The notes: generated by a model from the letters alone, not told the origin. 64,000 bases of DNA from a virus (IMGVR_UViG_3300017987_000005:105157-169156), one strand, 5' to 3'. Counted from the stretch's first letter, positions 12,366 to 49,859 are shown. Translations and numbers: made by a program.

Positions 12366-12372
12366 ACCTACC

Positions 12373-14999: not shown

Positions 15000-15008
15000 A
15001 TAAAATCC

Positions 15009-34187: not shown

Positions 34188-37015
34188 ATTAAGATTACTT
34201 GCTGATTGGCGTCGATTTTGCTTCTTTTCTGCTCTCCATCAATCGAGCCGTCCTTATCCTGGTACTGCTCCGGATGCATCTTCCTCAGATTCGGAGAGCC
34301 AGCAAACATTTCAAAATATCTCCAGTTAAGCATAGCACACATCAGAGCATCAGGTCCGTGGTCATCCTTTTTTATCGGCTTACCGTTTCCGTCAGCACGG
34401 TATCTCCTCAACTGAGAAAGTAACTGGTCATTACCTTCTCCGTCTTTAAGAAATTGAAGACGTCCGGTAGTAAGGAACTTCGATACGTTTTGTATTCCGA
34501 ACTCTTTCCATTTCTTAAAAACAACAGGAATTACTTTGAACCCTTCTTCATGCAGCTCGCGATTACTGAACTGGTCCGATGAGTCGGCAAACACTACAAA
34601 GTTACCGTACTCTTCTCTAAGTTTATTCAGGTATCCGATAATCTCCCCGATTTTTTGCTCATGAAACCATGCTGTCTCGAGAACTCCGACACCTATCTCA
34701 CTTCGAACAGTCATGCATATTGCCGTCTGTCCTACATAACCCCAGTCCAGTCCTACTGATTTCTCAATCTCTTCATACCATGTAATATCTTCCCACTCCG
34801 ATTCCGCTAAAGCTTCAATGTCATAAATGCTTCCGTAAAATTTCGGGCGCTCGCATTCAAACTCGACTGTATAAACGCTCGAACCCTCATTTACTTTTTT
34901 AATATCACATACAGCTTCAAACGACTGGTAACCTTCTGCTTTCCGCGCAGTTCCGTTGCATCCTTTTACGGTCGTTCCGATTACGCGTCCGCGCTCATCG
35001 TGTTCATTCACTACCTCAGACAAATAACAGTCGGCGCAGTCGATATCAAGTTCACACTTGACCATCGTGTCGTACACAGACCATTTATATCTAGTAAATC
35101 CATGAGTCTCTGCGTCGTCCCAATACTCCTGGAAAAATCCTTCAGGATGATGAAACGTACTGAGTATGAGGATAAGATGTTCCGGCTGAGTAAGTGCGTT
35201 CTGGAGAGCTGTTTTCATCACTTCGCCGGCTTTCAAGTCTTCCTGACAGTTATGCACAACAGCATTCATCATCATAAATGATTCACCGTCTTTGACTTCT
35301 ATATCCCACACTTCTCCGGAATAATGCCTAGACTCTACGCTTTTAACAGGGACAGCAATATAATTATCAATCTCCACCCATGAATTAAAAGCCTTCTGCT
35401 TTCTATCAGAATCATCGGTATCTGTAAATAAGCTCATTGCCTTTCCATTTATATCAATAACCCATGATTCTTTAGTACAGTACTCTTTACCACGTATATT
35501 AGATATTTTCGCCGGACGCTCTCTATAAGAAGCAGCTACTCCAAGTTTAGCCAGACATGTAAATATAGAAGCTGCCAGGGCTTCTGATGAGGTCTGTATC
35601 GAGGCTCTTTTGCAAACTCCTCCTGAAGAGGCTTTCCCTTCCCATACGGTTCCATCGGAAGCTATAAGTCCGCTTATAACTCCACGGACAAAATCTTTAG
35701 ATTGCCCAGCTATAAAGTCAAAAGGCATTCCTTTTTCTGTAGACTTTGTTCCGAAAGTAGTATCGAGAAAATCTGCTAATTCCTTATGAGTAAATAAGGC
35801 AGTATCAGTATTAATTCTATTCTCAACTGACGAATTATCAAAGCAAACCTCACGCCCAAACAAATCTTTACTTATTGATACATATTCATCTATATTACGC
35901 TTATCTTTAGAATTGAATACGACATAAATTCCTCTTGAACGCTGTTTACCGGTCCAGCCGTCCCCCAACCAATATCCAAGCCACTTCCCTCCGTCGTATG
36001 TATCAGCGAGTATACAATCATCTATATCGCTCGTCTTTATTTTTGGAATGAGGACATAATCTCTATCACTTATATCTTCGGCGTGAACCCACTCAGCACT
36101 AGACTCGTTAACAGAATCTTTTCTTTTTGGATTTCCTTTATCGAGTCCTCGAATTATCTTTACTCTGTGGTCATGAGTCAACTCTAATCCTGTAGACCAT
36201 CCATTAAGTGATATATTTACTACTCGATTATCCCAATCCTTGCTCCATACATTCTTAACAGAAGTTATAATTCCATCTTGATTGACTACACAATCTCCTG
36301 GAACAACATCTTCCACGTTAATAATCCCACGCTCTGTAATTACTTTCGAACCTGGGAGTAAACACCCCTCATCAATAATAAGACCGGAATCGTGACGACT
36401 CCGGACCTGCTTATCGGTCGCATTGATACAATGGAGCTTTGCTCCATTATAAAAATGCGTTCTGGATATCAAAGGGTCACCATCTATAAGATACTGATAA
36501 ACCTGGGGGTTACAACTACAAAACTCGACAACTTTTTCATAAATTGAACGAGCCTGACTACCAGAACCAGCAAGGTTGGTGAACTCTTTTGACTTGTAAA
36601 CCATCATCAAAAAGATGAGTACTGCGGCTGATGTGCTTCCTCCTCCGCCGCGAGATTTCCAGAGGATAGCTTTATTAACACGTTCGTAAAAAATGTCAGC
36701 GATAAGACGACGTGCTTCAGGGACTAGTTTAATGTATTGGCGTTTTCCATCTTTGACTAAATAAAGTGTTGACGATACAAAATCATAGATGGCTTGCTGT
36801 TGTCTAAGTGCGTGTTCTTTATCTGACTCGGTGTGTCGTTTGTTAACGAGTTCTTCGCCGAGCAAGTCGGCAAATCCATGCTCCAGGGGTGAGCGCACTT
36901 TCTTTATTTCAAGAAGACGGCTCTCCATGACACGCAGAGCTTCTAGCGCATCACTTTTTTCCGCTGACCCATGAAGGGACTCAATTGTTGAAGTTTTGTC
37001 CGGCACCCTCGTCAA
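34184..37015 (-). CDS. terL: Terminase large subunit, intein-containing
   Basis: Walker A-like KSRGGGGST, Walker B LIIDE, nuclease motifs GLDWG and DDHGPDA; upstream of the portal gene. Confidence 0.92.
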   Translation of the reverse strand: MTRVPDKTSTIESLHGSAEKSDALEALRVMESRLLEIKKVRSPLEHGFADLLGEELVNKRHTESDKEHALRQQQAIYDFVSSTLYLVKDGKRQYIKLVPEARRLIADIFYERVNKAILWKSRGGGGSTSAAVLIFLMMVYKSKEFTNLAGSGSQARSIYEKVVEFCSCNPQVYQYLIDGDPLISRTHFYNGAKLHCINATDKQVRSRHDSGLIIDEGCLLPGSKVITERGIINVEDVVPGDCVVNQDGIITSVKNVWSKDWDNRVVNISLNGWSTGLELTHDHRVKIIRGLDKGNPKRKDSVNESSAEWVHAEDISDRDYVLIPKIKTSDIDDCILADTYDGGKWLGYWLGDGWTGKQRSRGIYVVFNSKDKRNIDEYVSISKDLFGREVCFDNSSVENRINTDTALFTHKELADFLDTTFGTKSTEKGMPFDFIAGQSKDFVRGVISGLIASDGTVWEGKASSGGVCKRASIQTSSEALAASIFTCLAKLGVAASYRERPAKISNIRGKEYCTKESWVIDINGKAMSLFTDTDDSDRKQKAFNSWVEIDNYIAVPVKSVESRHYSGEVWDIEVKDGESFMMMNAVVHNCQEDLKAGEVMKTALQNALTQPEHLILILSTFHHPEGFFQEYWDDAETHGFTRYKWSVYDTMVKCELDIDCADCYLSEVVNEHDERGRVIGTTVKGCNGTARKAEGYQSFEAVCDIKKVNEGSSVYTVEFECERPKFYGSIYDIEALAESEWEDITWYEEIEKSVGLDWGYVGQTAICMTVRSEIGVGVLETAWFHEQKIGEIIGYLNKLREEYGNFVVFADSSDQFSNRELHEEGFKVIPVVFKKWKEFGIQNVSKFLTTGRLQFLKDGEGNDQLLSQLRRYRADGNGKPIKKDDHGPDALMCAMLNWRYFEMFAGSPNLRKMHPEQYQDKDGSIDGEQKRSKIDANQQVILI
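35249..36364 (-). mobile_element. Intein with LAGLIDADG homing endonuclease (372 aa)
   Basis: Starts CLLPGS; block B LELTHDHRV; LGYWLGDG and ISGLIASDG; ends VWDIEV...VVHN followed by +1 Cys. Confidence 0.95.
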
Positions 37016-37532
37016 ACTCCCCGCTCGTTATACGTTGAACCAATCTATCTCTTTGAGATAGCAGTTCAGCCTCGGACATCTCTTGGACTTCCTTCGCTAT
37101 AACTTCAATCTTCGAGCGGGAAGCTGCTCGTGGCATCAACCCCACATCCAACTTGAATGCGGCGAGGTCCTTCTGAACTTTATGAAATAATTCTAAGTAA
37201 CGCTGCTTATCAATATCCTTCTTAGCAGCAGTATAATTCATCCATAGTTCAGACATGGTTGCTTGCATTCGTTCACACGTTTCAAAAATTTGAACGTCAA
37301 CATCACCATGTCCATGCTTCTTAGCCATGTGCTCGCGAATGTATTTCAAATCACTACCCACTGTGTTGTAGTGGCAGGTCACGACGTTCGCGATTGCTCT
37401 TTGTGACATGTTACGCATATAATACAATTCGAAGACTGTTTCTCTGCGTAACTGAATTTTTTTCTGCTCGGGGGACATTACGGCGTCGGCTTTTTCATCA
37501 AACCAAGCACCATCTTTGTCTTTTTCTGCCAC
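36981..37532 (-). CDS. Terminase small subunit (HTH)
   Basis: HTH (MSQRAIA...TVGSDL); directly upstream of TerL. Confidence 0.75.
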   Translation of the reverse strand: MAEKDKDGAWFDEKADAVMSPEQKKIQLRRETVFELYYMRNMSQRAIANVVTCHYNTVGSDLKYIREHMAKKHGHGDVDVQIFETCERMQATMSELWMNYTAAKKDIDKQRYLELFHKVQKDLAAFKLDVGLMPRAASRSKIEVIAKEVQEMSEAELLSQRDRLVQRITSGEFDEGAGQNFNN

Positions 37533-37583
37533 GTCGGACGTCCTCCCTGTGAATGTGATTTCAATATCCGGACATTCACAAGC

Positions 37584-37612
37584 AGTATAGCATATAGACT
37601 AAATTTTGTCAA
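37584..37612 (-). promoter_or_regulatory. Sigma70-type promoter of the packaging/structural operon
   Basis: TTGACA-17 nt-TATACT with extended TG. An inverted repeat AAAAATGAAA/TTTCATTTTT lies just upstream at 37616-37639. Confidence 0.75.
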
Positions 37613-37649
37613 GAAAAAAATGAAATTTTTTTCATTTTTCCGGAAACCG

Positions 37650-38414
37650 TCACTTTTTAGACGACTCCTTCACTGCTTTTTCAAGCACTGCCTTGAAAAA
37701 CTCAGCCGCGTCCATAGAGTTATCATTGATGTGTCCCACGGTTTTTGATACAGTCTTCGCGAGTGCGTCATCGCACGTCACGATGAGATGCATCTTCTTC
37801 TTGTACATGAAGAACAGATAACTCCGGTCAATGCTATCTCCCTCATGATTACTGAAGATATCGTTGACTGCCACCGTAACATTATCGACCATCTGTAGTT
37901 CTTTGGGGATATCGTCATGAGAATAAGCTTCCTTACGCTCTTTTGCGCGCTTTTCTATCTCTTCCTTGCGATACCGCTTATCAAACTCACCTTTACTGGC
38001 GAATCCCATTTTCTTGGCGACTTCGTCCTCAGTTATCTTCTCACGGCGTTTAATGCTGTTTACAAGGGTGCTGAAGCGTCTTTCGTCCAGGTCTCCGTGG
38101 ATGATGTTGCGACGTACGGCTTTGATTTTGGCTTCTTCTTCGTCCCAATCCTTGATAATACAGGGTAATTCGGTCATTCCGATGACTTTCCCCGCGTCGT
38201 ACCGGTGATTCCCGGCGACAATCAGAAACCGGTCCTCTTTATCCGGATGCTTGATAACGACAAGAGGCTCATCAAATCCGTCAGATTCAATCTCAGCTAC
38301 CAGTTCGTTAAACGTCTCAGTTGACTGTACTTGCGGATTCCAGTCAGCTTTGATTAATTTCTCAATCGGGATATTGACCACATCTTCTACGTTATTCTTA
38401 ACTTCGTCTGCCAT
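37650..38414 (-). CDS. ParB/Srx N-terminal domain protein
   Basis: WNP...IESDGFDEPLVV...IVAGNHRYDA (GxxRxxA), then an HTH-like segment; SD AAAGGAGG before ATG 38414. Confidence 0.88.
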   Translation of the reverse strand: MADEVKNNVEDVVNIPIEKLIKADWNPQVQSTETFNELVAEIESDGFDEPLVVIKHPDKEDRFLIVAGNHRYDAGKVIGMTELPCIIKDWDEEEAKIKAVRRNIIHGDLDERRFSTLVNSIKRREKITEDEVAKKMGFASKGEFDKRYRKEEIEKRAKERKEAYSHDDIPKELQMVDNVTVAVNDIFSNHEGDSIDRSYLFFMYKKKMHLIVTCDDALAKTVSKTVGHINDNSMDAAEFFKAVLEKAVKESSKK

Positions 38415-38533
38415 ATTGCCTCCTTTTGCAATCGATTGCACCGCCATTGGTGACATTTTTGTCACATATTGAATGCATACCTAAAAATAAAAAATACTAT
38501 TTTATGCATACCGATTTTAACGACCGCATAAAT

Positions 38534-39031
38534 TTACGCGACGTCTTCCGGTTTATGCGTAACGAGGTCATTCTTGAGTTCAATAATCGTATTCGCTAAT
38601 ATCTTAGCAAGCTGCGGAGATAATCCGAAACGCTCGGTATTCTTTTCGATACTCGTCATTATATCCCCATCAGCATGGCGCTCTGTCGCAGCCCACCAGT
38701 CGCAAAGCATCTCGGTAACATCCAGAAGGGTCATGTCCTCAATCCCCTTCTCATGGTGCTCAGGATGGTGCGCATTATTCGCATAATGATGGTCCAGGGC
38801 TGGTTTCATCTCCTTTAAGCACTTCTGATACTCACTGTCAGGATTGACGTCATACGTCATACCGCGTAGTTTTGGAGTATATTTGAGAAACGTCTCAAAC
38901 TCCGGCTCTTCCAGCTTACTATCATCATGATGATACGCTCTCATATGCATGCGATTACAGAACTTCAAAATCTTACAGCATACGCTTGAAATATGCTTAA
39001 GAGTCTCTTTTATAACATCTCTCTCGTTCAT
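38534..39031 (-). CDS. DUF5662-like HD-type protein
   Basis: HHDDSKL, HHYANNAHHPEHH, EMLCDWWAA. Confidence 0.8.
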   Translation of the reverse strand: MNERDVIKETLKHISSVCCKILKFCNRMHMRAYHHDDSKLEEPEFETFLKYTPKLRGMTYDVNPDSEYQKCLKEMKPALDHHYANNAHHPEHHEKGIEDMTLLDVTEMLCDWWAATERHADGDIMTSIEKNTERFGLSPQLAKILANTIIELKNDLVTHKPEDVA

Positions 39032-39043
39032 CTGAACCTCCTA

Positions 39044-39059
39044 TGTTTCACGTGAAACA
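39044..39059. promoter_or_regulatory. parS: parS site, perfect consensus
   Basis: TGTTTCACGTGAAACA (18-bp palindrome 39043-39060), intergenic. Confidence 0.9.
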
Positions 39060-39611
39060 TCAATCATCAAAAATATCACTATATCCATAATCGACAGGTA
39101 TCCCGTCTCCGAGCGAAACATCGCTATAATGCTCCTTAAACCACTCAGAATCGGCTATGCGGTCATACCGCGCTTTAAGGCTAGTATCACGTCTCGATTT
39201 ACGGAGCTGCATCAGAAGGCGTCCTAACATGTTCTGACCGAACCCTCGAATAAGGTCAAACCCCCAAAAAGCATCTCCCCAGGTATTCCCCTCAACAAGC
39301 AGCGAATCCCCGGTAGAAAGCAGCCGGCGCTCCATTTCCGGATAACTGAATTTCGAATGCAAAACCTTAGCCATTACCGGTATTTTTATGCATTCCCAGT
39401 CATCACGAAGAATAACTCTCCTCCCACGCTTTTTCGCGGACCCTGGTGATGGTGCGTCTACGATATCTTGGCGACGCTCGGCGTCCAACGTCTTCTCACG
39501 CTGGTATGCATGTTCCCCGGACTTAAGCAGCTCTCCGTCCATCTCAAACTCCATCTCGTAAAAGTTTGACAGGAAAAAGTACTTTCCTTTGAATTCAAGA
39601 ATCGGCTTCAT
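39060..39611 (-). CDS. NADAR (YbiA-like) ADP-ribosylhydrolase family protein
   Basis: FLSNFY, EHAYQ..K, AKKRGR, KF, LLSTG...LVEGNTWGDAFWG, GQNMLGRLLMQLR. Confidence 0.95.
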   Translation of the reverse strand: MKPILEFKGKYFFLSNFYEMEFEMDGELLKSGEHAYQREKTLDAERRQDIVDAPSPGSAKKRGRRVILRDDWECIKIPVMAKVLHSKFSYPEMERRLLSTGDSLLVEGNTWGDAFWGFDLIRGFGQNMLGRLLMQLRKSRRDTSLKARYDRIADSEWFKEHYSDVSLGDGIPVDYGYSDIFDD

Positions 39612-40017
39612 CTTGCGATTCCTTCTCCGGAATACTTTTGTCCTGCGGAGGTTCGTCCACCTTGATATCCTTCGGAGGCGCTGCGTGCTGAGACGGGGCT
39701 TGAGGCACTTTCGGCTTCTTGGGAACTATGATAACTTTGAACTCATCCCCTATCGACTTAAAGCACTTAGCGCAATACAATCCGATTATATTGTTATGCT
39801 TTACAAGCTCCCAATGAGCGCCGCAGCATTTTGAATGCATGTAGATATTATCTCCGGCAATGCATTTACATACTATCCGAGGCTTATCGTGCTCCTCACA
39901 CCACCCACAATGGTCATGCCCAGGTACTCCGACAATCTCACAATTAACTCGTGATAATTCATCTTCAGTAGGTTCCCGACCAACTTTCTCAATAAACTCC
40001 TCTTTCGTTATAGGCAT
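39595..40017 (-). CDS. Cys/His-rich hypothetical protein
   Basis: Coupled ORF with HxxCGWC and CxxC. Confidence 0.7.
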   Translation of the reverse strand: MPITKEEFIEKVGREPTEDELSRVNCEIVGVPGHDHCGWCEEHDKPRIVCKCIAGDNIYMHSKCCGAHWELVKHNNIIGLYCAKCFKSIGDEFKVIIVPKKPKVPQAPSQHAAPPKDIKVDEPPQDKSIPEKESQDEADS

Positions 40018-40020
40018 AAA

Positions 40021-40212
40021 TCATTTCTCCTGATTACTGCGTTTTTCGATATGCTCAACTTCCACCTGATGACGTGCTGCCCATCCCGCTTTCCACCCGA
40101 GCTTCCAAGCTCCATATAAAAGCGCGGACAAAATAAGAACAGAAATAAACAGCGGTCCCGCAACAGCCATCCAGCACAACGGGTCTTTCCAACTCCAATT
40201 ATACAAACTCAT
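40021..40212 (-). CDS. Small membrane protein
   Basis: One hydrophobic segment; start moved to ATG 40212. Confidence 0.6.
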   Translation of the reverse strand: MSLYNWSWKDPLCWMAVAGPLFISVLILSALLYGAWKLGWKAGWAARHQVEVEHIEKRSNQEK

Positions 40213-40214
40213 GA

Positions 40215-40364
40215 CTAATCCTTGACGTCCCACATAACGTCTTCGATATCTTCCTCGACAGCTTCAACGTTAATGTCGTCGTCCTTTCCATACGCTCCCG
40301 ATTCGACCTTGTCAAGAATTTCCCTGAGCCCCTCAGCTAACGTTTTCTGTAATCCGCCCATCAT
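40215..40364 (-). CDS. 49-aa acidic protein
   Basis: ATGA overlap with the pncB stop; MMGGLQKTLAEGLREILDKVESG... Confidence 0.6.
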   Translation of the reverse strand: MMGGLQKTLAEGLREILDKVESGAYGKDDDINVEAVEEDIEDVMWDVKD

Positions 40365-41539
40365 ATCACTTTCTTCAAATAGTCCACATAATCCTTATCC
40401 CGACACATCTCCTTCCCCGTAGAATCGGACAGCTTTGCTACAGGCTGAAGATTCTCGGGGTCTCTGCCGGCTTCAATAACTTTCATTACAATCTGAATCG
40501 GTTCTGGCCCGAGGTTGTTTGTCAAATGAGTCCCAACTCCATAAGCATCTTTTATACGTCCCCGGACATAGGTATGAATCTTGGCAACATTCTTGAAATC
40601 CAATCCATCACTGAATACAGCGCTCTTCGTTGTGGGGTCGATTCCCATATCTTCGTAATGACGGATGACTTTCTCTACCCAGTCAGTTGGGCTCCCGGAA
40701 TCCTGACGAACTCCATCGAACAGCTTTGCAAAATACATGTCGAAGTCTTTGAGGAATTTCTGCAATCCTAGGGTGTCCGACAAAGCAATCCCCAGGTCGC
40801 CACGATACTCGTCAGCCCACGTCTGGAGCGCGTACCGCTGGCTCCATTCCGGCTTCGTCAATGCTTGGCATACTTGGAATACTTCATGCGCCATCGTTCC
40901 GATAGGCTTAAGTCCGTACTCCTTTGCAAATAGGACGTTACTCGTCCCAATAAATCCGGGGAATATCTCAGGCTGAGTCAGCAACTTTATAACGCGCGCA
41001 TGCCATTCCGGAGAGAATGCGCGTCGCGTTCCGAAATCAGCAAAACTGACTCCCTTCATCGTCTGTATGTTCGATAGACTGGCTGACAGCTTCTTCTCCC
41101 CCTCCTTAAATAACTCGTTGCGGTCTTTAGAAGAACAAAGGTTGTCAAAATATAACGCATTAACTGTACGTAGAATATAAATCTCATACAAAATAGTCTG
41201 CACCCACGGCCCTTCGACAATAATGCTGAGTCCTTCCGAATCAGAATCGCTGATGTGTACATATCTTGAATGAAGCTTGAACGTTCTGAGGAAATCAATA
41301 AAATCGCGCTTCATAAATCTCAGGTCACGGAGATACATCAACTCATCTTCCTTGAAGCTCAGACGATTCATGTAATTTATCTCGTCCTGTATCCGGGCTT
41401 TAATAGGAGAAAAATCCACTCCCTCAGTCCGGCACTTAAACGCATACTTCACGTATACGTCAGGGCACTGATGCAAAGCAAACTGCATCATTGTGAGTTT
41501 ATATAAATCGGTATCTAGTAAACTACGTATCACTGGCAT
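40361..41539 (-). CDS. pncB: Nicotinate phosphoribosyltransferase
   Basis: LLDTDLYKLTMMQ, DFGTRR, GTSNV, GTMAHE (phospho-His), GVRQDSG, FSDGL, GVGTHL, VAKLSD. Confidence 0.97.
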   Translation of the reverse strand: MPVIRSLLDTDLYKLTMMQFALHQCPDVYVKYAFKCRTEGVDFSPIKARIQDEINYMNRLSFKEDELMYLRDLRFMKRDFIDFLRTFKLHSRYVHISDSDSEGLSIIVEGPWVQTILYEIYILRTVNALYFDNLCSSKDRNELFKEGEKKLSASLSNIQTMKGVSFADFGTRRAFSPEWHARVIKLLTQPEIFPGFIGTSNVLFAKEYGLKPIGTMAHEVFQVCQALTKPEWSQRYALQTWADEYRGDLGIALSDTLGLQKFLKDFDMYFAKLFDGVRQDSGSPTDWVEKVIRHYEDMGIDPTTKSAVFSDGLDFKNVAKIHTYVRGRIKDAYGVGTHLTNNLGPEPIQIVMKVIEAGRDPENLQPVAKLSDSTGKEMCRDKDYVDYLKKVI

Positions 41540-41894
41540 CTTCTTCTCCTAAATGTCCGTGCATCCTTTTCCACTCTTTGATGTACTGAGCATGCTGTTC
41601 CGGATAAAAGTGTTCTATAAAATCAATCAGACGATAATCGTGTGGCTCGTCAGTAAATATATCTCCTGTCGTATCTGTAAAACAAAATATCTCGTTTTCA
41701 AAATGATGTTCGCTTTTGTGCTTCCCGCAGTTCCCGCATATCGGGTCCTCGATACATTCCAAAGCAGTGAAGCACATCTCAGTCAACTGCTGCATACGCT
41801 CATCGTCATTCAACAATATCTCGACAAGCTTGAGGACGCGGCACTTCGCAGAACGTCGCGCATTCCGCAACTTCCATGAGGCAAAACTTCCCAT
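41523..41894 (-). CDS. Hypothetical protein
   Basis: Coupled ORF, CGNCGKHKSEH. Confidence 0.65.
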   Translation of the reverse strand: MGSFASWKLRNARRSAKCRVLKLVEILLNDDERMQQLTEMCFTALECIEDPICGNCGKHKSEHHFENEIFCFTDTTGDIFTDEPHDYRLIDFIEHFYPEQHAQYIKEWKRMHGHLGEEDASDT

Positions 41895-41895
41895 C

Positions 41896-42294
41896 TTATT
41901 TCCCGTACCACATATAGGCGGGCTTTATAGCAACGATAGCATAAAAATCGTCATCAACATGCCCCCAGTCCTCGCAATAAACTCTCCATCCGAGTTCGTT
42001 GCTTCCGTCATGGTCAGCATTCGCGTCCCAATCCTTCATCTCGATATCCTCGGCTTTTTCAAGATACTTCTTAACTGCGGGAAACACTTCCTCTGCGGTA
42101 AGCTCTGACGGGAACTGGTTATAATTCTCCGGACTTGAATCCGGAATAGTCCAGCATAAAATGAGTCCATGCTTCTTAGTTTCCCTCCACGCATTAGCAG
42201 TCGTGTTCCGCCCCTCCTGAGCAAACGCGAGCTTCAACGTTTGGAGTAGAAGTTCGTCTCCGGTCCCGTTGACATTAAATACTCTGTTATCCAT
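41896..42294 (-). CDS. Hypothetical phage protein
   Basis: Coupled ORF (DHDGS..GWRVY...YGK). Confidence 0.75.
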   Translation of the reverse strand: MDNRVFNVNGTGDELLLQTLKLAFAQEGRNTTANAWRETKKHGLILCWTIPDSSPENYNQFPSELTAEEVFPAVKKYLEKAEDIEMKDWDANADHDGSNELGWRVYCEDWGHVDDDFYAIVAIKPAYMWYGK

Positions 42295-42908
42295 TACTCA
42301 CTACCTACACTCAAAAATTCATTAATAACTCCCATATCAGGCTCTTTCGCGTAGCTTCGCGGGTCGTTATATTCTGGCTTAAAATATTTTATAAAAGCAG
42401 ATTCCACTGCGTCTAGTCTAGTTTTCGGGACATGCATATAAAATACATAATTAAAATCCTTATCTTCACGATGCCTCTCTATACGCGTAGGCAGCGACGT
42501 AGTCTGACCAACATACACTATTAACTTATCGCGCACAAGAAAATAAACGCACGGAGGAAAATACCCTAACGGATATTCTTTCAAACACTCAAATAACGGC
42601 TGTATCCCATAAGGTAAATCAGTCGGCACTAAGCTTCTTGGATTATTCGTAATAACCTGTATACAATTAGGCGGTAACGGAGAACCTTTGTAATGGTGAA
42701 TCATGTTAACTTTTATCCAATCTCGAATCGCCCTCAACTCAAACACGGGCTCTGGATGAATGTCAACCTTAACACATGGCGCAAAACCTTGTTCCGCTAA
42801 CTCTACTAGTCGAGAAGGGCTAATAAAATCTTTTAATCCTTTTGGCAATTTTGCACACACCTCTTCTGCCGTATACAGTGACGGTATCGTCGTATTTCCT
42901 CTAGCCAC
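42294..42908 (-). CDS. GIY-YIG nuclease domain protein with N-terminal HTH-like region
   Basis: CVYFL...VYVGQT..L..RI..H...E..FIKYFKPEYN. Confidence 0.85.
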   Translation of the reverse strand: MARGNTTIPSLYTAEEVCAKLPKGLKDFISPSRLVELAEQGFAPCVKVDIHPEPVFELRAIRDWIKVNMIHHYKGSPLPPNCIQVITNNPRSLVPTDLPYGIQPLFECLKEYPLGYFPPCVYFLVRDKLIVYVGQTTSLPTRIERHREDKDFNYVFYMHVPKTRLDAVESAFIKYFKPEYNDPRSYAKEPDMGVINEFLSVGSE

Positions 42909-43096
42909 TAGTCTACGCTCCTCTCATTATCGAACCACTTCTTTTTCGGTTCTTCGGCTCTATGAAAATCACCGTGATAATCTATGCACGGCTTCGTCTT
43001 CCTGCACGACTCGCACAGCCCAACTGATACGTTCGGCATTATAAACCAGAACGTATCTACTCCGTTCTCAATGCAACACTTCTCGCAGATAAACAT
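42908..43096 (-). CDS. Zn-finger microprotein (WFDN motif)
   Basis: CxxC...CxxC; coupled to both neighbours. Confidence 0.7.
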   Translation of the reverse strand: MFICEKCCIENGVDTFWFIMPNVSVGLCESCRKTKPCIDYHGDFHRAEEPKKKWFDNERSVD

Positions 43097-43401
43097 TAAT
43101 AATCTTCATCAATAATATCATTAGGGTCAAGAGGATTTTCAGTCGGGTCGTAATCATCCGGATTCAGCTCATCATCCTCATCATCCATATGACTACGGTC
43201 ATCGAGCATCTGAATCGCTGCTACGGCTGAGCCGCGTATCGATTCGAAAAAATCCCGAAGCTCATCCTCATCAGTAATCGCATGATACGACTTTGCCATG
43301 ATTTCCTCAAAATCATCAAAAAGCTTATCGTAATTTTCACTGCTTTCTCCAGCAGTCCGGTCCTCACTCATCACCATTCTCCCGCACATACTTAAATCCA
43401 C
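43096..43401 (-). CDS. Acidic hypothetical protein
   Basis: Asp/Glu-rich ORF; start uncertain. Confidence 0.65.
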   Translation of the reverse strand: MDLSMCGRMVMSEDRTAGESSENYDKLFDDFEEIMAKSYHAITDEDELRDFFESIRGSAVAAIQMLDDRSHMDDEDDELNPDDYDPTENPLDPNDIIDEDY

Positions 43402-43642
43402 GAGTGGGAGGCTTAGTCGGAGCTTTATAATCTACTTTCTTTAACGGCTCCATTACAATACGTCCAGGCTCGATGCTTATAACTTCCCCTTCAGCATGTA
43501 CTCTCCCTTTATACGCAAACATAACTTTATCATACTCAAATAACTGGCGGGGCGTTCCCGACACGTCCCACCAACACTCATAAATATCAGAAGCCGTCTT
43601 ATGTTCCACTACCTCCGGCTTGGCATGAATAATGATATCCAT
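43364..43642 (-). CDS. Hypothetical protein (PUA/ASCH-like pattern)
   Basis: Start moved to ATG 43642 (MDIIIHAK); ends PTRGFKY. Confidence 0.6.
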   Translation of the reverse strand: MDIIIHAKPEVVEHKTASDIYECWWDVSGTPRQLFEYDKVMFAYKGRVHAEGEVISIEPGRIVMEPLKKVDYKAPTKPPTRGFKYVRENGDE

Positions 43643-43643
43643 A

Positions 43644-44039
43644 CTACATTCCTTTTCCGTCGTTAAACCATTCCCCGTTAGCTTCCACTTTGTTCCCGCT
43701 CTTCTGGCGCTCCGCCCAACGTACTCCGGCATCAAACGCTTCTTCCGGAGTAGGTCTTCCGTCAGATGCACGCCCTAGCATCGGATGCTGGCACATAAAT
43801 AATTTCTCCACACGAAGACGTACTTCATGGCCATAATATCCCGCTACGTATCCAAGATTTTTCCGCTCTATGCTCTCAGCTTCTACTCTGGATTTTCCAG
43901 CTATTCGCATAGTATGTTCGACAAGCACTTCGAAATACTCGTCAGCAGTAGCTTGGTCCATTATCGACATAGCAGGTTTATACTTCTCTCCGAGAGTAGT
44001 CTCATCAGGAAGTCTCTCGGGCAGTACTACTTTCTCCAT
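43644..44039 (-). CDS. Hypothetical protein (WFND motif)
   Basis: TAATG-coupled to nadE. Confidence 0.7.
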   Translation of the reverse strand: MEKVVLPERLPDETTLGEKYKPAMSIMDQATADEYFEVLVEHTMRIAGKSRVEAESIERKNLGYVAGYYGHEVRLRVEKLFMCQHPMLGRASDGRPTPEEAFDAGVRWAERQKSGNKVEANGEWFNDGKGM

Positions 44040-44776
44040 TACTCGTCCACCCTTCCTAAAAGTTTCTCATCAACAAAACAACACGGAGGCATCTGACGCT
44101 TATGTTGGCTCTGCAACATGCGCTTCGATAATGTCCCATCCTGGCAATCAATTCCTGCTAGCGCCCTATCCATCTGAGTATACGTCATTCCGATTTCCTT
44201 CTCATCCGTCTGCCCTTCCCATAATCCGGCTGAAGGTGCTTTTGTGAGGATTCGCTCGGGAACTCCGAGATGCTCAGCAAACTTTCGAACATGAGTCTTA
44301 TATAGACTTCCAATAGGTTCGATGTCAACTCCCCCATCCCCATATTTCGTATAATACCCGAGTTCTATCTCAGTCAGATTGCTCGTCCCGGCTACAAGAT
44401 AATTGCAAGTGTTTGCAACGTAATACAGGGCACACATACGAAGACGCGATTTCAGATTTGCTCTGGCAAGCTTACAATCAAACGTTTCCGGGAACAGCTT
44501 GAGCATACTATTATACGTATCTCCGAGTTCCACTACTTCGGAATAGATGGCAAACGTACTGCACAGCGTAGCTGCGTCAATCCCATCATCATCCAAAGAC
44601 TCGCACGGCATTATCAGCCCGGTCACATTTTCGTCAAACTCGCGCTTACATAGGACGGCAGTAACAGCAGAGTCTATTCCACCACTCACTCCGACTACGA
44701 CTCCCCGTGCTCCTGCTTTTGTTACTCGCTCCCTCATCCATCGCTGAATGGTATCGGCTACTTTCTCACATTGCAT
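44039..44776 (-). CDS. nadE: NH3-dependent NAD+ synthetase
   Basis: VGVSGGIDSAV, NLKSRLRM, GYYTKYGDGG, KAPSAGLWEGQTDE, SQHKR; no glutaminase domain. Confidence 0.97.
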   Translation of the reverse strand: MQCEKVADTIQRWMRERVTKAGARGVVVGVSGGIDSAVTAVLCKREFDENVTGLIMPCESLDDDGIDAATLCSTFAIYSEVVELGDTYNSMLKLFPETFDCKLARANLKSRLRMCALYYVANTCNYLVAGTSNLTEIELGYYTKYGDGGVDIEPIGSLYKTHVRKFAEHLGVPERILTKAPSAGLWEGQTDEKEIGMTYTQMDRALAGIDCQDGTLSKRMLQSQHKRQMPPCCFVDEKLLGRVDE

Positions 44777-45354
44777 TACTCTTCTCCTTTGGTGACTGCT
44801 TCCAGCTCTGCGATTACGGCTCCTTTTTCTTCCATCTCCTGAAGAGCTTCGTCAGAACTCTTTTCATCCACTCCGGCAATAGCATCGCGAACTACAGTGA
44901 CTTCGATTCCACGTTCCAGGAGTCCGAGTACAGCAGATTTCACGCAGTAATCGGTCGCTACTCCGTAAACAACGGCTGAAGAGACTTTCTTATCCTTAAG
45001 ATATTTGACAATCTCATCGTTGCCGCCCTTCTCAGCAAACACGTCGTACGTATTCTTGCGGAATATATCTGCGTCGTTATTCTTAGTTTCCTGAATAGAC
45101 TTCGCTCCCGCTGTTCCGCACATGCAATGCTCAGGAAACGGTCCGCCATTGACCTCAAGCTCACCCTCAACGTCTTTATACGCAGGAGTTCCAAAATGAA
45201 CGTCCATTGTCTTCACAACCTTAATGCCTTTCTCGACAGCATAATCATTCAGTCGCTTAAGAGCTGGTTTTATAGATTCGGCATTCGGAACATATAGTGC
45301 TCCTCCCTCATTCATAAAATCTCTCTGAGTATCCACGTCTACAAAAATCAACAT
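44776..45354 (-). CDS. pncA: Nicotinamidase
   Basis: DTQRDF..GGALYV, DVH, FPEHC..GT.GA, FRK, GVATDYCV (Asp-Lys-Cys triad). Confidence 0.93.
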   Translation of the reverse strand: MLIFVDVDTQRDFMNEGGALYVPNAESIKPALKRLNDYAVEKGIKVVKTMDVHFGTPAYKDVEGELEVNGGPFPEHCMCGTAGAKSIQETKNNDADIFRKNTYDVFAEKGGNDEIVKYLKDKKVSSAVVYGVATDYCVKSAVLGLLERGIEVTVVRDAIAGVDEKSSDEALQEMEEKGAVIAELEAVTKGEE

Positions 45355-45692
45355 GGTAATTCTCCTTCAAAACAAGTGCGATACATCAAGCACCGTAACT
45401 TACATTTTTCAATATGGTCTATCAATATACTCTGCACAATACAAGGCAGCATGTTTGCTTTATTTTCGAGGTCAATCTGATGCTCCTTATAATACTCATA
45501 AGCAAGTATTATAATAACTGCGTCAGTGCAACCGGTGGGACGCACATGGTCTTTAAGTTCTTCCATGTGCGCCTCCACCCAGTCAAGATATCCTTTGAAG
45601 AATCCCGGCTCGGTTTTAATGCGAATATTCTGTTTGCTCCAAACAATATATTCTTCCAGTTCAGGTCTATTCCGAGGTCCAGGTCCTTCCAT
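45348..45692 (-). CDS. Hypothetical protein
   Basis: Coupled ORF. Confidence 0.65.
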   Translation of the reverse strand: MEGPGPRNRPELEEYIVWSKQNIRIKTEPGFFKGYLDWVEAHMEELKDHVRPTGCTDAVIIILAYEYYKEHQIDLENKANMLPCIVQSILIDHIEKCKLRCLMYRTCFEGELPC

Positions 45693-45695
45693 AGG

Positions 45696-46514
45696 TCAAT
45701 CCATAAAAACAACGTTAGAACGAGAAATAGAAAGAGCTTCCGTATTCACAATTACTTCGTGCCAAATATTCCCCAGGTCTACAGTAGCGTGTTCGATGTG
45801 ACGGATTTTCCCTTTCACAAACGCACGCATTCCAGTAGTACGCTGGTCCCATCTTCCGCGCGCTCTTTCGTCGCGCTCTTTCACGAGTTTATTATACTTG
45901 TGAACATCTACCCCTTCTGGAAAATTCGTATGGAAGTAACGAGTAGTTCCTCCCGTACGATACAAAAAATCAGCGACATGCGGATTCCCGCGCTGAGCTA
46001 AAGGCTCCTTTTTCTGAACGAGCCAATCCTTCACAGCCATATCAGGCATGGGAACAAAAGTAAACTCCCCCTGACGATGAATGGTTCCTCCGGCAGCTTT
46101 ACGATGACGCTTCTGACGGTTTTTACGTTTTACTCCGCGCTTATTTTCTATTTCGCGAAGTGCAGCAGGTTTCAAAGCTTCTTTAGCTTCTGCTACGTTA
46201 GAAGCTCCCGCAGTCTCAGGAATAGCTGCGGTAAACCAGTGGCGTTCATCGTGTCCACACAGAAAACGCGCTTTAGGATTCTCCGGGTCACGAACCATTA
46301 TAAGAAGATGGCGGTCTTTGGGTTTTACGTCAAGAATCTGAGTTCCGACTCCATCACGAAGAAGAATTTCAAAGAACTCTCCTTTGCGGTCACGGCGAAC
46401 ATCCATAGCAACATTCCCGTCCATGCGCGTACGACGTACCCACCGCACATCATCGGAAACGCGCTCAACTTTTACGCGCGCCCCCATTTTCTCAAATGCA
46501 GTGTTAATATTCAT
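45696..46514 (-). CDS. Basic hypothetical protein
   Basis: 272-aa ORF with RQGE and RHIEHAT motifs. Confidence 0.75.
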   Translation of the reverse strand: MNINTAFEKMGARVKVERVSDDVRWVRRTRMDGNVAMDVRRDRKGEFFEILLRDGVGTQILDVKPKDRHLLIMVRDPENPKARFLCGHDERHWFTAAIPETAGASNVAEAKEALKPAALREIENKRGVKRKNRQKRHRKAAGGTIHRQGEFTFVPMPDMAVKDWLVQKKEPLAQRGNPHVADFLYRTGGTTRYFHTNFPEGVDVHKYNKLVKERDERARGRWDQRTTGMRAFVKGKIRHIEHATVDLGNIWHEVIVNTEALSISRSNVVFMD

Positions 46515-46517
46515 AAA

Positions 46518-46865
46518 TTATCCTCGAAACGGAGAAGATGGCGGCCCACCAGGAGGCATTTCTCCGGGCAGTATGATTCGATTATCCAACTTATGTTTCA
46601 AGTCTTTCTGCGCTTCGTCTGCTAACTCATCAAACTTCTCAAACGCTTCCTCGATAAATCTGGCGGGTATGTCGAAATCAATCGGCATACTCATTTCAGC
46701 CGGGCCCATCGGAGTATCCGTCATACGGGCTAATCCAGTGTGTCCAACATAGCGGGTCACAGGATTCTTCGGGTCAACACGCATAAACATAGTAATCAAG
46801 TCAACTCGTCCATCAGGCATAGTCCTTTTGAATACGCGAAGCTCTTCGATAATCGGGTCGCTCAT
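46518..46865 (-). CDS. Hypothetical protein
   Basis: ORF with SD GGGAG. Confidence 0.7.
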   Translation of the reverse strand: MSDPIIEELRVFKRTMPDGRVDLITMFMRVDPKNPVTRYVGHTGLARMTDTPMGPAEMSMPIDFDIPARFIEEAFEKFDELADEAQKDLKHKLDNRIILPGEMPPGGPPSSPFRG

Positions 46866-46879
46866 CGCTCTCCCTATAA

Positions 46880-48289
46880 TTAAAGTCTAAACATGACTTC
46901 CGGTCCGTCGAACAAGTCCTCGACGATTCCGTTGTCAGTCAAAGTACGGTAAAAACAATAACGTCCAGGATATATCAGCAAATTATTCGGGCACCCAATC
47001 TGGTCAACATCCGTCACGGCTGTCCCGAAATACCTTGATATAAACTGGTTCAAATGAGCTGTATCAGCTCCTTCCTTCTTCAACTGGTCTCGAATACTGG
47101 ACAACTTGTCCACATCTGCATGAAAGTAGAGCGTGTCCTTTATAGCATCCTTCATAATGCCGTACATCCGATTCACGTTCTCCTTACGGTCATGCTCCTT
47201 CACGAACCTCTTTCTCCAGTCATCGTGCTTCTTCAAAGCGACTGGATAATCCTCCTTGATTCGCTTTAACATAGCTACTGTATGGTCCTTCTTCTTCATC
47301 GAATAGATGAACGGGCATTCGGAATACATTCCGTTAGCAACCCACGGTTTCTCCGGAAGCATACATACAGTATTCATCGATACTGCTTCAACAGTAGTCA
47401 GTGAGTAACTCTCATGTAGTGACGAGCTAAAAAACACATGCGCTCTTCTCAGCATATCCTTAAATTCTGCTGACTGAACTCCCTCTTTGAACTGAATAAG
47501 CGGATGCTTGTCCTTCAGCTCAGTCGGGAACTGTGTTTGAGTCGTCACGATAGCGGTTATCTTATACAGTATAATCGCTTTTTCTAAAACTTCAAAGAAC
47601 GCATCAAAATTCTTTACTGAGTTGAAGCGACCGCCAAACATCACAGTAAACTTCTTATTCTTATCCTCGAGCTTTGCAGGCTCTATACTCTTAATATCGA
47701 TTCCCCGATGCACTGCATGGCATCGCTCCTCAGCTTCGAGAACAAGATTCGGTTTAAGGTAATCAGACATCAATTTCACAGCATGGCGTTTCTCAATCTC
47801 AGAATTGAAAAAATTCGCAGCACTATAATAATATCCGAATGCTTTATCACGGTACAGCGAGGGATGGACAGTATCATGGATGTATCCCGGATACGCTACG
47901 GCGGTATCGCGGACGAATATTGGTGTCGGTCGTCTCAAAGAACGCATAAGATTGTCCATCCCCGGATTCGCTGCACTGGATTCGCATAACAGTCCATCAG
48001 CAAGTCCCTTCCCGAATCGTCTGTTACACATTGACGATATAATCTCGGGTGAGAATGTCTGAATAAAATGCCAATCATAAAAAAGAACAGGGTAGAACTG
48101 ATGCTGTATCTTTCCGGGTATGTCCTCAACTGCTCCCCGGTATTTCAACGGCATCAGGTAATAGAAGAAACACTTTCCTCCCGAAAGTTTATCAACCCAG
48201 TCACAAAAGTTGCGAAGTAACAAATAGTTACTGTCCCCCATAATCATCTTGGGGGACGTCATGGTAATTGGTCTAACAATCAGTCTCAT
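46880..48289 (-). CDS. GT-B (GT4-like) glycosyltransferase
   Basis: VHRGID, VMFGGRFNSVKN, AHVFFSSSLHESYSLTTVEA (EX7E). Confidence 0.85.
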   Translation of the reverse strand: MRLIVRPITMTSPKMIMGDSNYLLLRNFCDWVDKLSGGKCFFYYLMPLKYRGAVEDIPGKIQHQFYPVLFYDWHFIQTFSPEIISSMCNRRFGKGLADGLLCESSAANPGMDNLMRSLRRPTPIFVRDTAVAYPGYIHDTVHPSLYRDKAFGYYYSAANFFNSEIEKRHAVKLMSDYLKPNLVLEAEERCHAVHRGIDIKSIEPAKLEDKNKKFTVMFGGRFNSVKNFDAFFEVLEKAIILYKITAIVTTQTQFPTELKDKHPLIQFKEGVQSAEFKDMLRRAHVFFSSSLHESYSLTTVEAVSMNTVCMLPEKPWVANGMYSECPFIYSMKKKDHTVAMLKRIKEDYPVALKKHDDWRKRFVKEHDRKENVNRMYGIMKDAIKDTLYFHADVDKLSSIRDQLKKEGADTAHLNQFISRYFGTAVTDVDQIGCPNNLLIYPGRYCFYRTLTDNGIVEDLFDGPEVMFRL

Positions 48290-48594
48290 TTGGCATCTTC
48301 CCGAAGCTGGTCAAGCTCATAAGTGGTGTGGTCAATGGCGCACTTCATCGAGCAGAAAACTTTATCACTGTGTATCTTCTGGCGGTCATACTTCGAATCG
48401 TCCTCACTGTTCTTATCCGCATGGACAAGCTTGTTGAACGAAACCTGAACGTGTCCGCCTACCCATCCTTCCGGAAAGGCATCTGACATATGTACGCGCT
48501 CATCATGCGGAAGCTCCTCACTGAGTGCGCCCTTCTCCGCTCCGCAATGAGCACATTTGAACATATAATTAACTGTCTTCGTTACTGGCATCAT
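48286..48594 (-). CDS. Zn-binding hypothetical protein
   Basis: CAHCG...FCSMKC. Confidence 0.7.
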   Translation of the reverse strand: MMPVTKTVNYMFKCAHCGAEKGALSEELPHDERVHMSDAFPEGWVGGHVQVSFNKLVHADKNSEDDSKYDRQKIHSDKVFCSMKCAIDHTTYELDQLREDAK

Positions 48595-49126
48595 TGTCCT
48601 CCTTTCCAGACTCCGCAGCTACCATCGCTTTCAGAACTTGAACATACGGAACGTTTTCAATATCCGCATCTGTAATCATGCGGTCAACGTCGTCATCGTC
48701 CTTCAGTTCAGCCCACCAGCTCTCGCATCCGAAAATGACGGTGCTGAGTTCAAAAACATAAAAAGCACAATTATTGTATGTCCTGACGTGCAGAACTCCG
48801 GTAGCTTTCTCACGCTCATATACGACATCAATCGGAATCTCTCCGATATACATCCCAAGGAACGTCTGCTCCTTATACTGTTCTGCACACGGTCTGATTC
48901 GGACAAGCGCCCCTACTTCAATTCCAGTCATAACCCCCTTCTTGGGGCGTGAAAAGTGTCCCTTAACATCACTGATTTCAACAGGAAACTTGATATCATC
49001 CATAGTATCAAACTTCTGTTTATGCTCAGCAATACCGTTGCTCAACTTCCCGATAAGTCCAGCCAACGCTTCTCCATCATTCTTAGCTTCAGACTTCTCT
49101 TCACTCGGTGCATTTGACTTTGCCAT
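48569..49126 (-). CDS. Hypothetical protein
   Basis: SD GGAGAGTGA before ATG 49126. Confidence 0.75.
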   Translation of the reverse strand: MAKSNAPSEEKSEAKNDGEALAGLIGKLSNGIAEHKQKFDTMDDIKFPVEISDVKGHFSRPKKGVMTGIEVGALVRIRPCAEQYKEQTFLGMYIGEIPIDVVYEREKATGVLHVRTYNNCAFYVFELSTVIFGCESWWAELKDDDDVDRMITDADIENVPYVQVLKAMVAAESGKEDNDASNEDS

Positions 49127-49544
49127 ACGTGTCACTCTCCTTCTGATTATCGAACCAGCGGGGCTTCCGCTTCAAAATAACGATATACGGCATCCCTCCG
49201 GGAAACAACGTCCACATATCTCGGGACGTACAATATTTTACTCGGCTGACTCCGATTCCAAGCACCATGAGCTGCTCCATGTAAAGATGCTCTCCCCACT
49301 GTTCGTCATCTTTGTTCTGACACATGTTGAGGAAGGTCCATCCCCCGCCCTTACCCTCATGAAACTGTTCGGGTAACTGGTTGAGGAGTCCGTCAATATC
49401 ATTAAAATGACTCTTCAGTCGCTCCGGGTGTAATCCATAAGTATGAGCTATTCCGCGAACTATAACTGCTTTTGATGTGCTCTCCCCCTCATTGAACAAA
49501 CAATCCTTAAATACCGACTCTACATTAGCTATTGTAAGTTCCAT
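49101..49544 (-). CDS. Hypothetical protein (WFDN motif)
   Basis: GGGWTFLNMC...QWGEH; SD GGAGAGTGA; start moved to ATG 49544. Confidence 0.75.
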   Translation of the reverse strand: MELTIANVESVFKDCLFNEGESTSKAVIVRGIAHTYGLHPERLKSHFNDIDGLLNQLPEQFHEGKGGGWTFLNMCQNKDDEQWGEHLYMEQLMVLGIGVSRVKYCTSRDMWTLFPGGMPYIVILKRKPRWFDNQKESDTYGKVKCTE

Positions 49545-49546
49545 GC

Positions 49547-49783: not shown

Positions 49784-49785
49784 GC

Positions 49786-49842: not shown

Positions 49843-49859
49843 GAACAATCTTAAAAAAC

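Follow-up and report, generated by a model that had tools for sequence, protein, structure and literature searches.

Phage genes for a deamidating route from nicotinamide to NAD+: a candidate salvage module that would rely on a host adenylyltransferase

The genome of the uncultured phage described here carries intact genes for PncA, PncB and NadE, three of the four enzymes that lead from nicotinamide to NAD+ via nicotinic acid, and we think it rather probable that the block holding them is a genuine phage auxiliary module feeding nicotinamide into NAD+ via deamidated intermediates. Bacterial immunity commonly ends in the depletion of NAD+, and proof exists for three routes by which phages rebuild it. 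The products of the three genes are predicted to cover together the steps from nicotinamide over nicotinate to NaMN and from NaAD to NAD, a reading that is supported by the analysis. The positions and common orientation that a preliminary description had given for pncA, nadE, pncB and a NADAR gene have been confirmed for all four, which lie on the minus strand of the window (the whole 64,000-nucleotide stretch analysed), and the catalytic motifs that it had called intact are all present, i.e., the triad and metal site of PncA, the SGGxDS loop of NadE and the GTMAHE histidine of PncB. The features of the region are:

49815-49842, minus strand: predicted sigma-70-type promoter (TTGACA, 16 nt, TG-TATAAT; 12/12 matches)
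45696-46514: orf272, member of a large family without assigned function
44776-45354, minus strand: PncA, archaeal-type nicotinamidase, 192 aa (predicted reaction: nicotinamide + H2O -> nicotinate + NH3)
44039-44776, minus strand: NadE, NH3-dependent NAD synthetase of the short single-domain kind, 245 aa; TAATG overlap of its start codon with the end of pncA
43644-44039, minus strand: orf131, no assigned function; 1-nt overlap with nadE (translationally coupled), C-terminal W-F-N-D tag
42294-42908, minus strand: GIY-YIG-like free-standing endonuclease gene, 204 aa, between nadE and pncB
40361-41539, minus strand: PncB, nicotinate phosphoribosyltransferase, 392 aa (predicted reaction: nicotinate + PRPP (+ATP) -> NaMN)
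39060-39611, minus strand: NADAR domain protein, YbiA subfamily, 183 aa (Pfam NADAR and YbiA structure match)

The window is part of a 183,648-bp virus record (DTR) with an exact 123-bp terminal repeat, which CheckV rates as 100% complete. GC amounts to 45.7% in the block and 46.1% in the genome, with GC content and GC skew uniform across the block, and structural genes adjoin it on the same strand. PncB is of the proteobacterial type and about 50% identical to enzymes of Desulfobacterota and Proteobacteria; apart from this bacterial character, nothing has been found in favour of host DNA or a chimeric assembly as the source of the block. Such an origin is nevertheless extremely improbable, as it is opposed by the single complete sequence with its repeats, the even composition, the same-strand phage genes with overlapping reading frames on either side, and the PncB tree, in which the phage enzyme groups with viral contigs in a clade supported at 97/89, separate from the cellular clade. 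Since the composition matches and PncB belongs to a phage-associated clade, the block is phage DNA, and the earlier claim that the genes are phage-encoded has been borne out. For the phage itself, no near-identical DNA has been found in the phage collection, the portal has at most 32% identity to cultured relatives, and a search of IMG/VR via the flanking ParB-like and glycosyltransferase-like genes has yielded no syntenic relatives; the phage with the closest viral PncA and PncB (G001) shows no match to this portal.

The NAD genes belong to a string of about 12 kb (49783 down to 38534) in which gaps do not exceed 28 nt and overlaps of 1-4 nt are frequent, and the sigma-70-type promoter is located at its head. 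The proposed translational coupling of pncA and nadE holds in so far as the stop/start overlap is real and an AAAGGAG ribosome site precedes it, and it is supported that pncA, pncB and nadE are phage-borne and, by prediction, co-transcribed. A regulator gene of the NrtR or NiaR type has not been recognised in the block, and an Rfam scan of positions 36000-51000 for riboswitches and regulatory RNAs has returned one sub-threshold chance match only. A complex prediction for PncA and NadE, made with ammonia channelling in mind, has given a score of 0.01, which speaks neither for nor against such a complex. Pfam domains of the vWA, phosphatase or kinase kind are absent from the block. The distance between pncB and nadE is 2.5 kb and is filled by eight unrelated ORFs, among them the GIY-YIG-like gene (GIY-YIG E 5e-4, just under the cut-off; phrog_1111 endonuclease match), presumably a selfish insertion. 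In phage G001, pncA and pncB flank an unambiguous GIY-YIG gene.

PncA is assigned to the Isochorismatase family of Pfam (E 1e-27), and its best NCBIfam model, the nicotinamidase NF008623, scores 79 bits and thus stays under its 174-bit cut-off; the model derives from the E. coli type, whereas the phage enzyme is of the archaeal type. Because of this low score, the substrate has been deduced from the active-site residues and the nearest structures. The top eight PDB matches are all nicotinamidases, led by that of P. horikoshii (1IM5, E 4e-24), to whose D10, K94 and C133 the phage residues D8, K100 and C137 align, while D51, H53 and H76 match its Zn ligands in position; both sets are invariant in 24 relatives. 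An Asp/His/His metal site sets nicotinamidases apart from other isochorismatase-like hydrolases. One might still suppose that PncA, being under the NCBIfam cut-off, is another isochorismatase-type amidase, or that pncA-nadE, pncB and NADAR are independent passengers in a variable accessory region, which has many fast-evolving small ORFs and in which the eight ORFs with their homing-endonuclease-like gene separate pncB from nadE. That the genes would not form one pathway is, however, very improbable, given the invariant nicotinamidase-specific metal site and triad and the recurrent linkage of PncA with PncB (17 of 26 IMG/VR viral loci) and with NadE (about 11) in unrelated phages.

The assignments of the two other enzymes rest on scores above the model cut-offs. 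PncB contains both Pfam domains (NAPRTase_N and NAPRTase), reaches 484 bits with NF003704 (cut-off 379) and 414 bits with TIGR01514 (cut-off 270), and can be aligned from end to end with P. aeruginosa PncB (1YIR, E 3e-90), the GTMAHE histidine included. NadE matches NAD_synthase of Pfam (E 2e-70), NF010587 (257 bits, cut-off 255) and TIGR00552 (246 bits, cut-off 64), consists of a single synthetase domain without a glutaminase domain, and has a PP-loop (S31-G-G-x-D35-S36) that is invariant in the family alignment (A3). Among named organisms, its closest relatives (about 50% identity) come from Altiarchaeales, Aenigmatarchaeota and Dehalococcoidales, and other phage NadEs are only 28-36% identical to it. 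These mixed affinities, with PncA and NadE archaeal-like, PncB of the proteobacterial type within a phage clade, and NadE remote from its phage counterparts, argue for a gene set that may have been assembled under selection rather than captured as one host operon.

The short single-domain group to which NadE belongs includes the Francisella enzyme (3FIU; 131 bits, E 4e-37, similar to the scores for solved NAD synthetases), so NadE could in principle act as an NMN synthetase that converts NaMN to NMN, from which host NadR, NadM or a weakly acting NadD would lead to NAD+. The pairing of PncA and NadE with NadM-like adenylyltransferases (RxQPxHxGH motif) in several related phages would agree with such a route. 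We regard it as improbable, since the NAD synthetases of C. jejuni (153 bits), P. horikoshii (149) and H. pylori (133) score higher, since the archaeal-type enzyme for which tests exist, that of M. jannaschii, is a genuine NAD synthetase and lacks appreciable activity as an NMN synthetase (PMC3376133), and since a host adenylyltransferase would still be needed, and a less universal one than NadD.

The missing fourth step has been traced through the complete genome. The window lacks an HxGH adenylyltransferase, as had been noticed before, and none of the NAD type occurs in the rest of the genome, where NadD, NadM, NadR, Nampt, Prs, Nudix and PnuC are likewise absent; Pribosyltran_N and NMN_transporter give no match in the genome, and there is no second NAPRTase-family gene in it. 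The sole PF01467 (HIGH-type) nucleotidyltransferase is CoaD (TIGR01510 170 bits, cut-off 103; all 34 PDB matches are PPAT), and a custom phage-NMNAT profile run against all six frames has found nothing beyond it. Since the genome is complete, the absence is real, and the option that the adenylyltransferase gene might lie outside the window is ruled out for this 184-kb genome with its CoaD-type enzyme only. Consequently, a host adenylyltransferase is required on either route. Several candidates for a phage substitute have been rejected: orf131 and orf135, the ORFs after nadE, show no tblastn, phmmer or profile signal of a decayed adenylyltransferase (orf131 has no match in Pfam, NCBIfam or PHROG searches); orf272, with a mostly beta predicted structure (pLDDT 93), has no PDB match that would suggest a non-homologous replacement enzyme (best values: Foldseek E 0.23, VIA Z 4.5) and is unlinked to PncA elsewhere; and the CoaD-like gene is too clear a PPAT by NCBIfam and PDB to be taken for a moonlighting NaMN adenylyltransferase.

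A survey of 25 IMG/VR records with related PncA has revealed gene sets from PncA and PncB only up to all four enzymes. PncA and PncB stand alone in four near-complete genomes, and a further genome combines the trio with no adenylyltransferase; partial sets that depend on the host are thus common. The co-occurrence of pncA, pncB and nadE recurs in IMG/VR phages and in the GenBank phages Phosso and LR756501, the latter a 735-kb megaphage. In Sinorhizobium phage Phosso (PV764938) and four of the surveyed phages (G004, G010, G020 and G025), PncA, PncB and NadE lie within a few kb as here, but the cluster includes a NadD- or NadM-like adenylyltransferase, which the window phage lacks, and their NadE proteins, at 28-36% identity, belong to another subfamily. 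G004 shares the order PncA>NadE with the window; its NadD-like gene directly follows NadE, in the slot that is occupied here by the unrelated small orf131.

The deamidating route is not new to phages: a study of 2024 had already reported pncB-nadD-nadE (Preiss-Handler) clusters as well as pncA in phages (PMC11662467), and Phosso, LR756501 and many IMG/VR phages carry the same genes. The gene set in the window is a real but ordinary addition to this reported theme. The NAD-jumbo phages of that study (e.g., Kuafu_71 with pncB-nadD-nadE) resemble the window phage in their clustered PncB and NadE and the mention of pncA, and a role of their clusters in making NAD+ in the course of infection has been put forward solely on sequence grounds (PMC11662467). 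The window phage differs in its size (184 kb, under the 200-kb jumbo limit), in having PncA and in lacking NadD, and owing to the last point it falls outside the complete-pathway definition used there.

Among the proven routes, NARP1 (Adps and Namat) and NARP2 (Nampt and Nmnat) counter NADase defences (bioRxiv 10.1101/2024.02.11.579819), and NARP3 (PnuC and NadR) was reported later (PMC13464706). The separation from NARP1 and NARP2 claimed at the outset stands, as no enzyme is in common, and the same applies to NARP3: the genome has no Prs-like ADPR-PP synthetase and no Nampt-like Namat, no Nampt paralogue, NMNAT or NUDIX, and no PnuC or NadR-type nucleotidyltransferase. NARP1 and NARP3 have the same outcome, in that the phage rebuilds NAD+, but use other substrates (ADPR-PP, nicotinamide riboside) and enzymes. 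NARP2, as in Vibrio phage KVP40 with Nampt and a bifunctional Nmnat/Nudix, is likewise a phage-encoded path from nicotinamide to NAD+; it is amidated (via NMN), self-sufficient with two enzymes and experimentally anti-NADase, whereas the route predicted from the window set would cost more ATP and would not recycle ADP-ribose, which has been counted against our preferred explanation. Unlike NARP1-3, the pathway lacks one of its four steps and so cannot be completed with phage genes only. The salvage I operons of bacteria (pncA-pncB-nadE, in many cases regulated by NrtR) share its chemistry and enzyme families, but the window genes come without a recognised NrtR or NiaR, are of different lineages and stand among phage ORFs.

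From this gene content we infer how flux, the use of host NadD and any counter-defence effect might come about. Transcribed jointly from a host-type promoter, the NAD genes would provide PncA, which would deamidate nicotinamide to nicotinate, PncB, which would convert nicotinate with PRPP to NaMN, and NadE, which would amidate NaAD with ammonia to NAD+ once host NadD had adenylated NaMN. The phage would supply the entry steps and extra capacity at the last step, with the host trunk doing the step between. The entry steps from nicotinamide to NaMN are absent or limiting in many bacteria, and host NadD is near-universal, being required for de novo synthesis. As NaMN is where salvage joins the essential NadD-NadE trunk of the host, a phage adenylyltransferase would be unneeded. 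The most likely benefit would be an NAD+ pool that is held up in infection, including when NADase defences free nicotinamide. An anti-defence role of the trio is plausible; the specific proposal that PncA and PncB (with NadE as a reinforcement here) form a minimal, host-trunk-dependent reconstitution of NAD+ after such cleavage is put forward tentatively.

The NADAR gene product scores 75.8 bits with PF08719 (cut-off 35.1, E 6e-21), aligns to E. coli YbiA (2B3W, E 8e-19) with the LVE motif kept, and has YbiA-type motifs including the Glu in the last strand (LVEG...WGDAFWG) that serves as subfamily criterion (PMC11125620). It is probably an ADP-ribosyl-guanine glycohydrolase whose function, despite the linkage with the salvage genes, is more likely a separate one, namely counter-defence by removal of ADP-ribose from DNA (PMC11825919, PMC11125620). 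Stand-alone NADAR domains in phages are also known from AdfN of T4-like phages (PMC11825919) and from YbiA-family NADARs (PMC11125620); T4 gp30.3 has His in the last strand and is not closely related. A NADAR near PncA has also been found in the viral records G004, where it adjoins PncB (44% identity), and G005.

The usual reading of NAD-jumbo phages and of solitary cyanophage NadE genes is general NAD supply, and a supply for replication in a slow-growing sediment host, not counter-defence, is a conceivable if somewhat unlikely purpose of the genes discussed here as well. NadE occurs alone in cultured marine phages including P-TIM68, S-SSM7 and HTVC008M, gene sets are patchy among phages, the genome encodes further housekeeping-type functions (CoaD and 45 tRNAs), and phage and host pathways have been argued to be complementary (PMC11662467). 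On the other side, no NAD-consuming phage enzyme that would make a special demand has been found, neither an NAD-dependent ligase nor a macro domain having turned up when looked for; entry at nicotinamide, the NADase product, rather than at nicotinate fits recycling after cleavage; and the NADAR counter-defence candidate lies in the same operon. General supply and counter-defence are not mutually exclusive.

The deamidating route has been seen in phage genomes, and the complete genome offers a clean test case, for which a host-dependent module predicts that the phage enzymes work only via host NadD and matter most in hosts unable to recycle nicotinamide. Dependence on the host trunk, if true, would account for the frequent partial sets in large phages, and rescue from Thoeris, DSR or SIR2-HerA, if true, would add to NAD-reconstitution counter-defence a fourth class, one that proceeds by deamidation.

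All four NAD-related genes called in the preliminary description (PncA, NadE, PncB and NADAR) have been recovered by profile searches between 39060 and 45354:

39060-39611, minus strand: NADAR protein, found by profile search
40361-41539, minus strand: PncB, with both NAPRTase domains and above two curated NCBIfam cut-offs
44039-44776, minus strand: NadE, an NAD synthetase with one domain, scoring over the equivalog cut-offs
44776-45354, minus strand: PncA, an isochorismatase-fold protein

PncB aligns end to end with the P. aeruginosa PncB (1YIR, E 3e-90), and the SGGxDS loop is present in NadE. PncA reaches 79 bits and falls below the 174-bit cut-off of the E. coli-type nicotinamidase model. 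Since its eight best solved relatives are all nicotinamidases (top, P. horikoshii PncA, E 4e-24), and both the catalytic residues D8, K100 and C137 (Asp-Lys-Cys triad) and the metal ligands D51, H53 and H76 (Asp/His/His site) are unchanged in 24 relatives, we nevertheless accept it as a predicted archaeal-type nicotinamidase. NadE shares 28-36% identity with other phage NadEs and ∼50% with enzymes of Altiarchaeales, Aenigmatarchaeota and Dehalococcoidales, while PncA is archaeal-like and PncB of proteobacterial type. Such differing affinities indicate that the gene set has been put together from different sources, which would argue for selection on the pathway.

The block is phage DNA, and the host origin considered in the preliminary description is contradicted by several observations. 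The window covers bases 105157-169156 of an IMG/VR record of 183,648 bp, which carries direct terminal repeats and is rated 100% complete, and an exact 123-bp terminal repeat has been confirmed. The GC content of the block matches that of the genome (45.7% vs 46.1%), and tail fibre, baseplate, tape measure, sheath, capsid and portal genes follow directly below on the same strand. In a maximum-likelihood tree, in which cellular sequences are represented by best hits only (limited sampling), this PncB groups in a supported clade (97/89) together with unnamed metagenome sequences and two viral contigs, and the enzymes of Desulfobacterota and Proteobacteria form a separate one (100/96).

The window has its long reading frames all on the minus strand and is uniform in GC content and GC skew over its whole length. 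The TAATG coupling of pncA and nadE reported in the preliminary description is present, the A closing the stop codon of pncA and opening the start codon of nadE, with an AAAGGAG ribosome site ahead; the nadE 3' end overlaps the next ORF (orf131) in the same way. These genes belong to a series of 23 minus-strand ORFs running from 49783 down to 38534 with gaps of at most 28 nt and many overlaps of 1-4 nt, and two promoters bracket this ∼12-kb accessory gene string:

49842-49815, minus strand: perfect sigma-70 promoter (TTGACA, 16 nt, TG-TATAAT; extended -10; 12/12 matches) at the head of the string
37612-37584, minus strand: next strong promoter (11/12 match), below the block

No convincing terminator has been found between the two. 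Given the packed ORFs and the perfect upstream promoter, host RNA polymerase probably reads the NAD genes as part of one transcript, which also covers small ORFs of unknown function, a GIY-YIG-like endonuclease gene and the genes of a GT4-like protein, of a DUF5662 protein and, further down, of a ParB-N protein. Pfam recognises no vWA, phosphatase or kinase domain in the block. The strong sigma-70-type promoters flanking the string make it probable that the host relies on standard sigma-70 promoters and on strong Shine-Dalgarno sites.

Several neighbouring ORFs deserve mention. The free-standing GIY-YIG-like gene (42294-42908, minus strand; weak match) lies between nadE and pncB, and a clear counterpart (E 1e-8) lies between pncA and pncB in another viral record (G001, L003:9206-9952, plus strand); their presence within the NAD gene sets of two unrelated phages suggests homing endonucleases targeting this module. 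A W-F-[DN]-[DN] tag, encoded at 42926-42937 and 43659-43670 (minus strand), occurs near the C-termini of two small block ORFs, orf62 and orf131, the latter translationally coupled to nadE. The 469-aa product of 46880-48289 (minus strand), in the same operon, resembles GT4 glycosyltransferases weakly and below threshold, the 'GT4-conflict' family among them. A large uncharacterised family of 1146 representative clusters includes orf272 (45696-46514, minus strand), which lies two genes upstream of pncA; a GHDERHWF motif is invariant, as are several His, Glu and Asp residues. The AlphaFold model of orf272 is very confident (pLDDT 93, mostly beta) but finds no PDB counterpart (Foldseek best E 0.23; VIA best Z 4.5), and orf272 may represent an undescribed metal-dependent enzyme fold.

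As the genome is complete, the absence of a gene can be tested. Over the whole genome, the Pfam family spanning the NadD, NadM and NadR adenylyltransferases gives one match at E≤1 (genome 24491-25027), which is a CoaD equivalog (TIGR01510, 170 bits vs a cut-off of 103) with phosphopantetheine adenylyltransferases as all 34 of its PDB matches; by these two results it is clearly a CoaD. A custom profile built from the adenylyltransferases within other phages' NAD clusters and run unfiltered against every stop-to-stop frame has likewise returned CoaD and no NAD-type enzyme. The preliminary description had suggested a gene outside the window, and searching the rest of the genome for NadD/NadM/NadR, Prs and Nudix; this source is now excluded. 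In the complete genome PncB is also the sole NAPRTase-family member, which leaves no Nampt or Namat, and searches for a Prs N-domain, Nudix, PnuC, an NAD-dependent ligase and a macro domain found nothing. With CoaD alone, the phage must draw on an adenylyltransferase of its host, whichever route its NadE follows. The CoaD gene (L002:1381-1917, minus strand) lies outside the window near a family-4 uracil-DNA glycosylase (L002:130-699), and a CoaD-like gene occurs also in G020, a second large phage record.

In a collection of 50,697 phage records, PncB-like genes have been found in 31, NadE-like in 48 and PncA-like in 11, some of these records being small fragments of doubtful origin. The megaphage LR756501 (735 kb) carries PncA, PncB and NadE within 8 kb, and the Sinorhizobium phage Phosso cluster NadE, PncB, MutT, NMNAT and an isochorismatase. 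Searching IMG/VR with a PncA family alignment has given 26 loci, 25 of which were then searched as whole records.

Enzyme sets in IMG/VR viral records with related PncA
All four enzymes, adenylyltransferase within the cluster: G004, G010, G020, G025
Trio without adenylyltransferase: G019 (97% complete) and this phage
PncA and PncB only: G001, G006, G017 (each 100% complete), G009
PncA, NadE and adenylyltransferase, without PncB: G018, G022

The co-occurrence survey proposed earlier finds the trio in LR756501, Phosso and several IMG/VR records. The nearest analogue is G004 (264 kb, direct terminal repeats), in which PncA is followed by NadE, a NadE-overlapping NadD-like gene and, farther along, a NADAR of 44% identity adjoining PncB (L008 bases 7587-16683). 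In the slot after NadE, where G004 has its NadD-like gene, this phage has the unrelated 131-aa ORF.

In the proposed route, PncA would convert nicotinamide to nicotinate, PncB nicotinate to NaMN, host NadD NaMN to NaAD, and phage NadE NaAD to NAD+. NaMN is the junction of salvage with the de novo trunk needed by nearly all bacteria, and the phage could therefore do without an adenylyltransferase; its omission would rely on this host trunk, a reading that the PncA- and PncB-only genomes fit. Alternatively, a Francisella-type NadE would make NMN, still requiring a host adenylyltransferase. The NadE sequence, however, gives somewhat better scores with ordinary NAD synthetases than with the Francisella enzyme (3FIU), and the archaeal-type enzyme that was tested is a true NAD synthetase (PMC3376133).

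We take the NADAR protein (YbiA subfamily, Glu in the last strand) for a counter-defence candidate in its own right and not for a salvage enzyme, because published NADARs remove ADP-ribose from DNA guanine and those of phages neutralise DarTG1 (PMC11125620, PMC11825919). It is notable, though, that its position near PncA recurs in G004 and G005. For the salvage genes, the preliminary description had proposed a candidate anti-defence pathway distinct from NARP1 and NARP2. Indeed, no enzyme is shared with NARP1 (Adps and Namat), NARP2 (Nampt and Nmnat) or NARP3 (PnuC and NadR) (bioRxiv 10.1101/2024.02.11.579819; PMC13464706), but the route itself was already known in phages: metagenome-derived pncB-nadD-nadE Preiss-Handler clusters and phage pncA were described in 2024 (PMC11662467). 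A wide-ranging survey of viral NAD systems from 2022 dealt with the amidated route only (PMC9503650). A counter-defence benefit of the set seems possible, though less likely than not, and general NAD supply would fit the sequence equally well. This phage adds another example to the known deamidating gene sets; its usefulness lies in the complete genome, which proves the absence of the adenylyltransferase, and G004 is the natural comparator for whether that enzyme matters.
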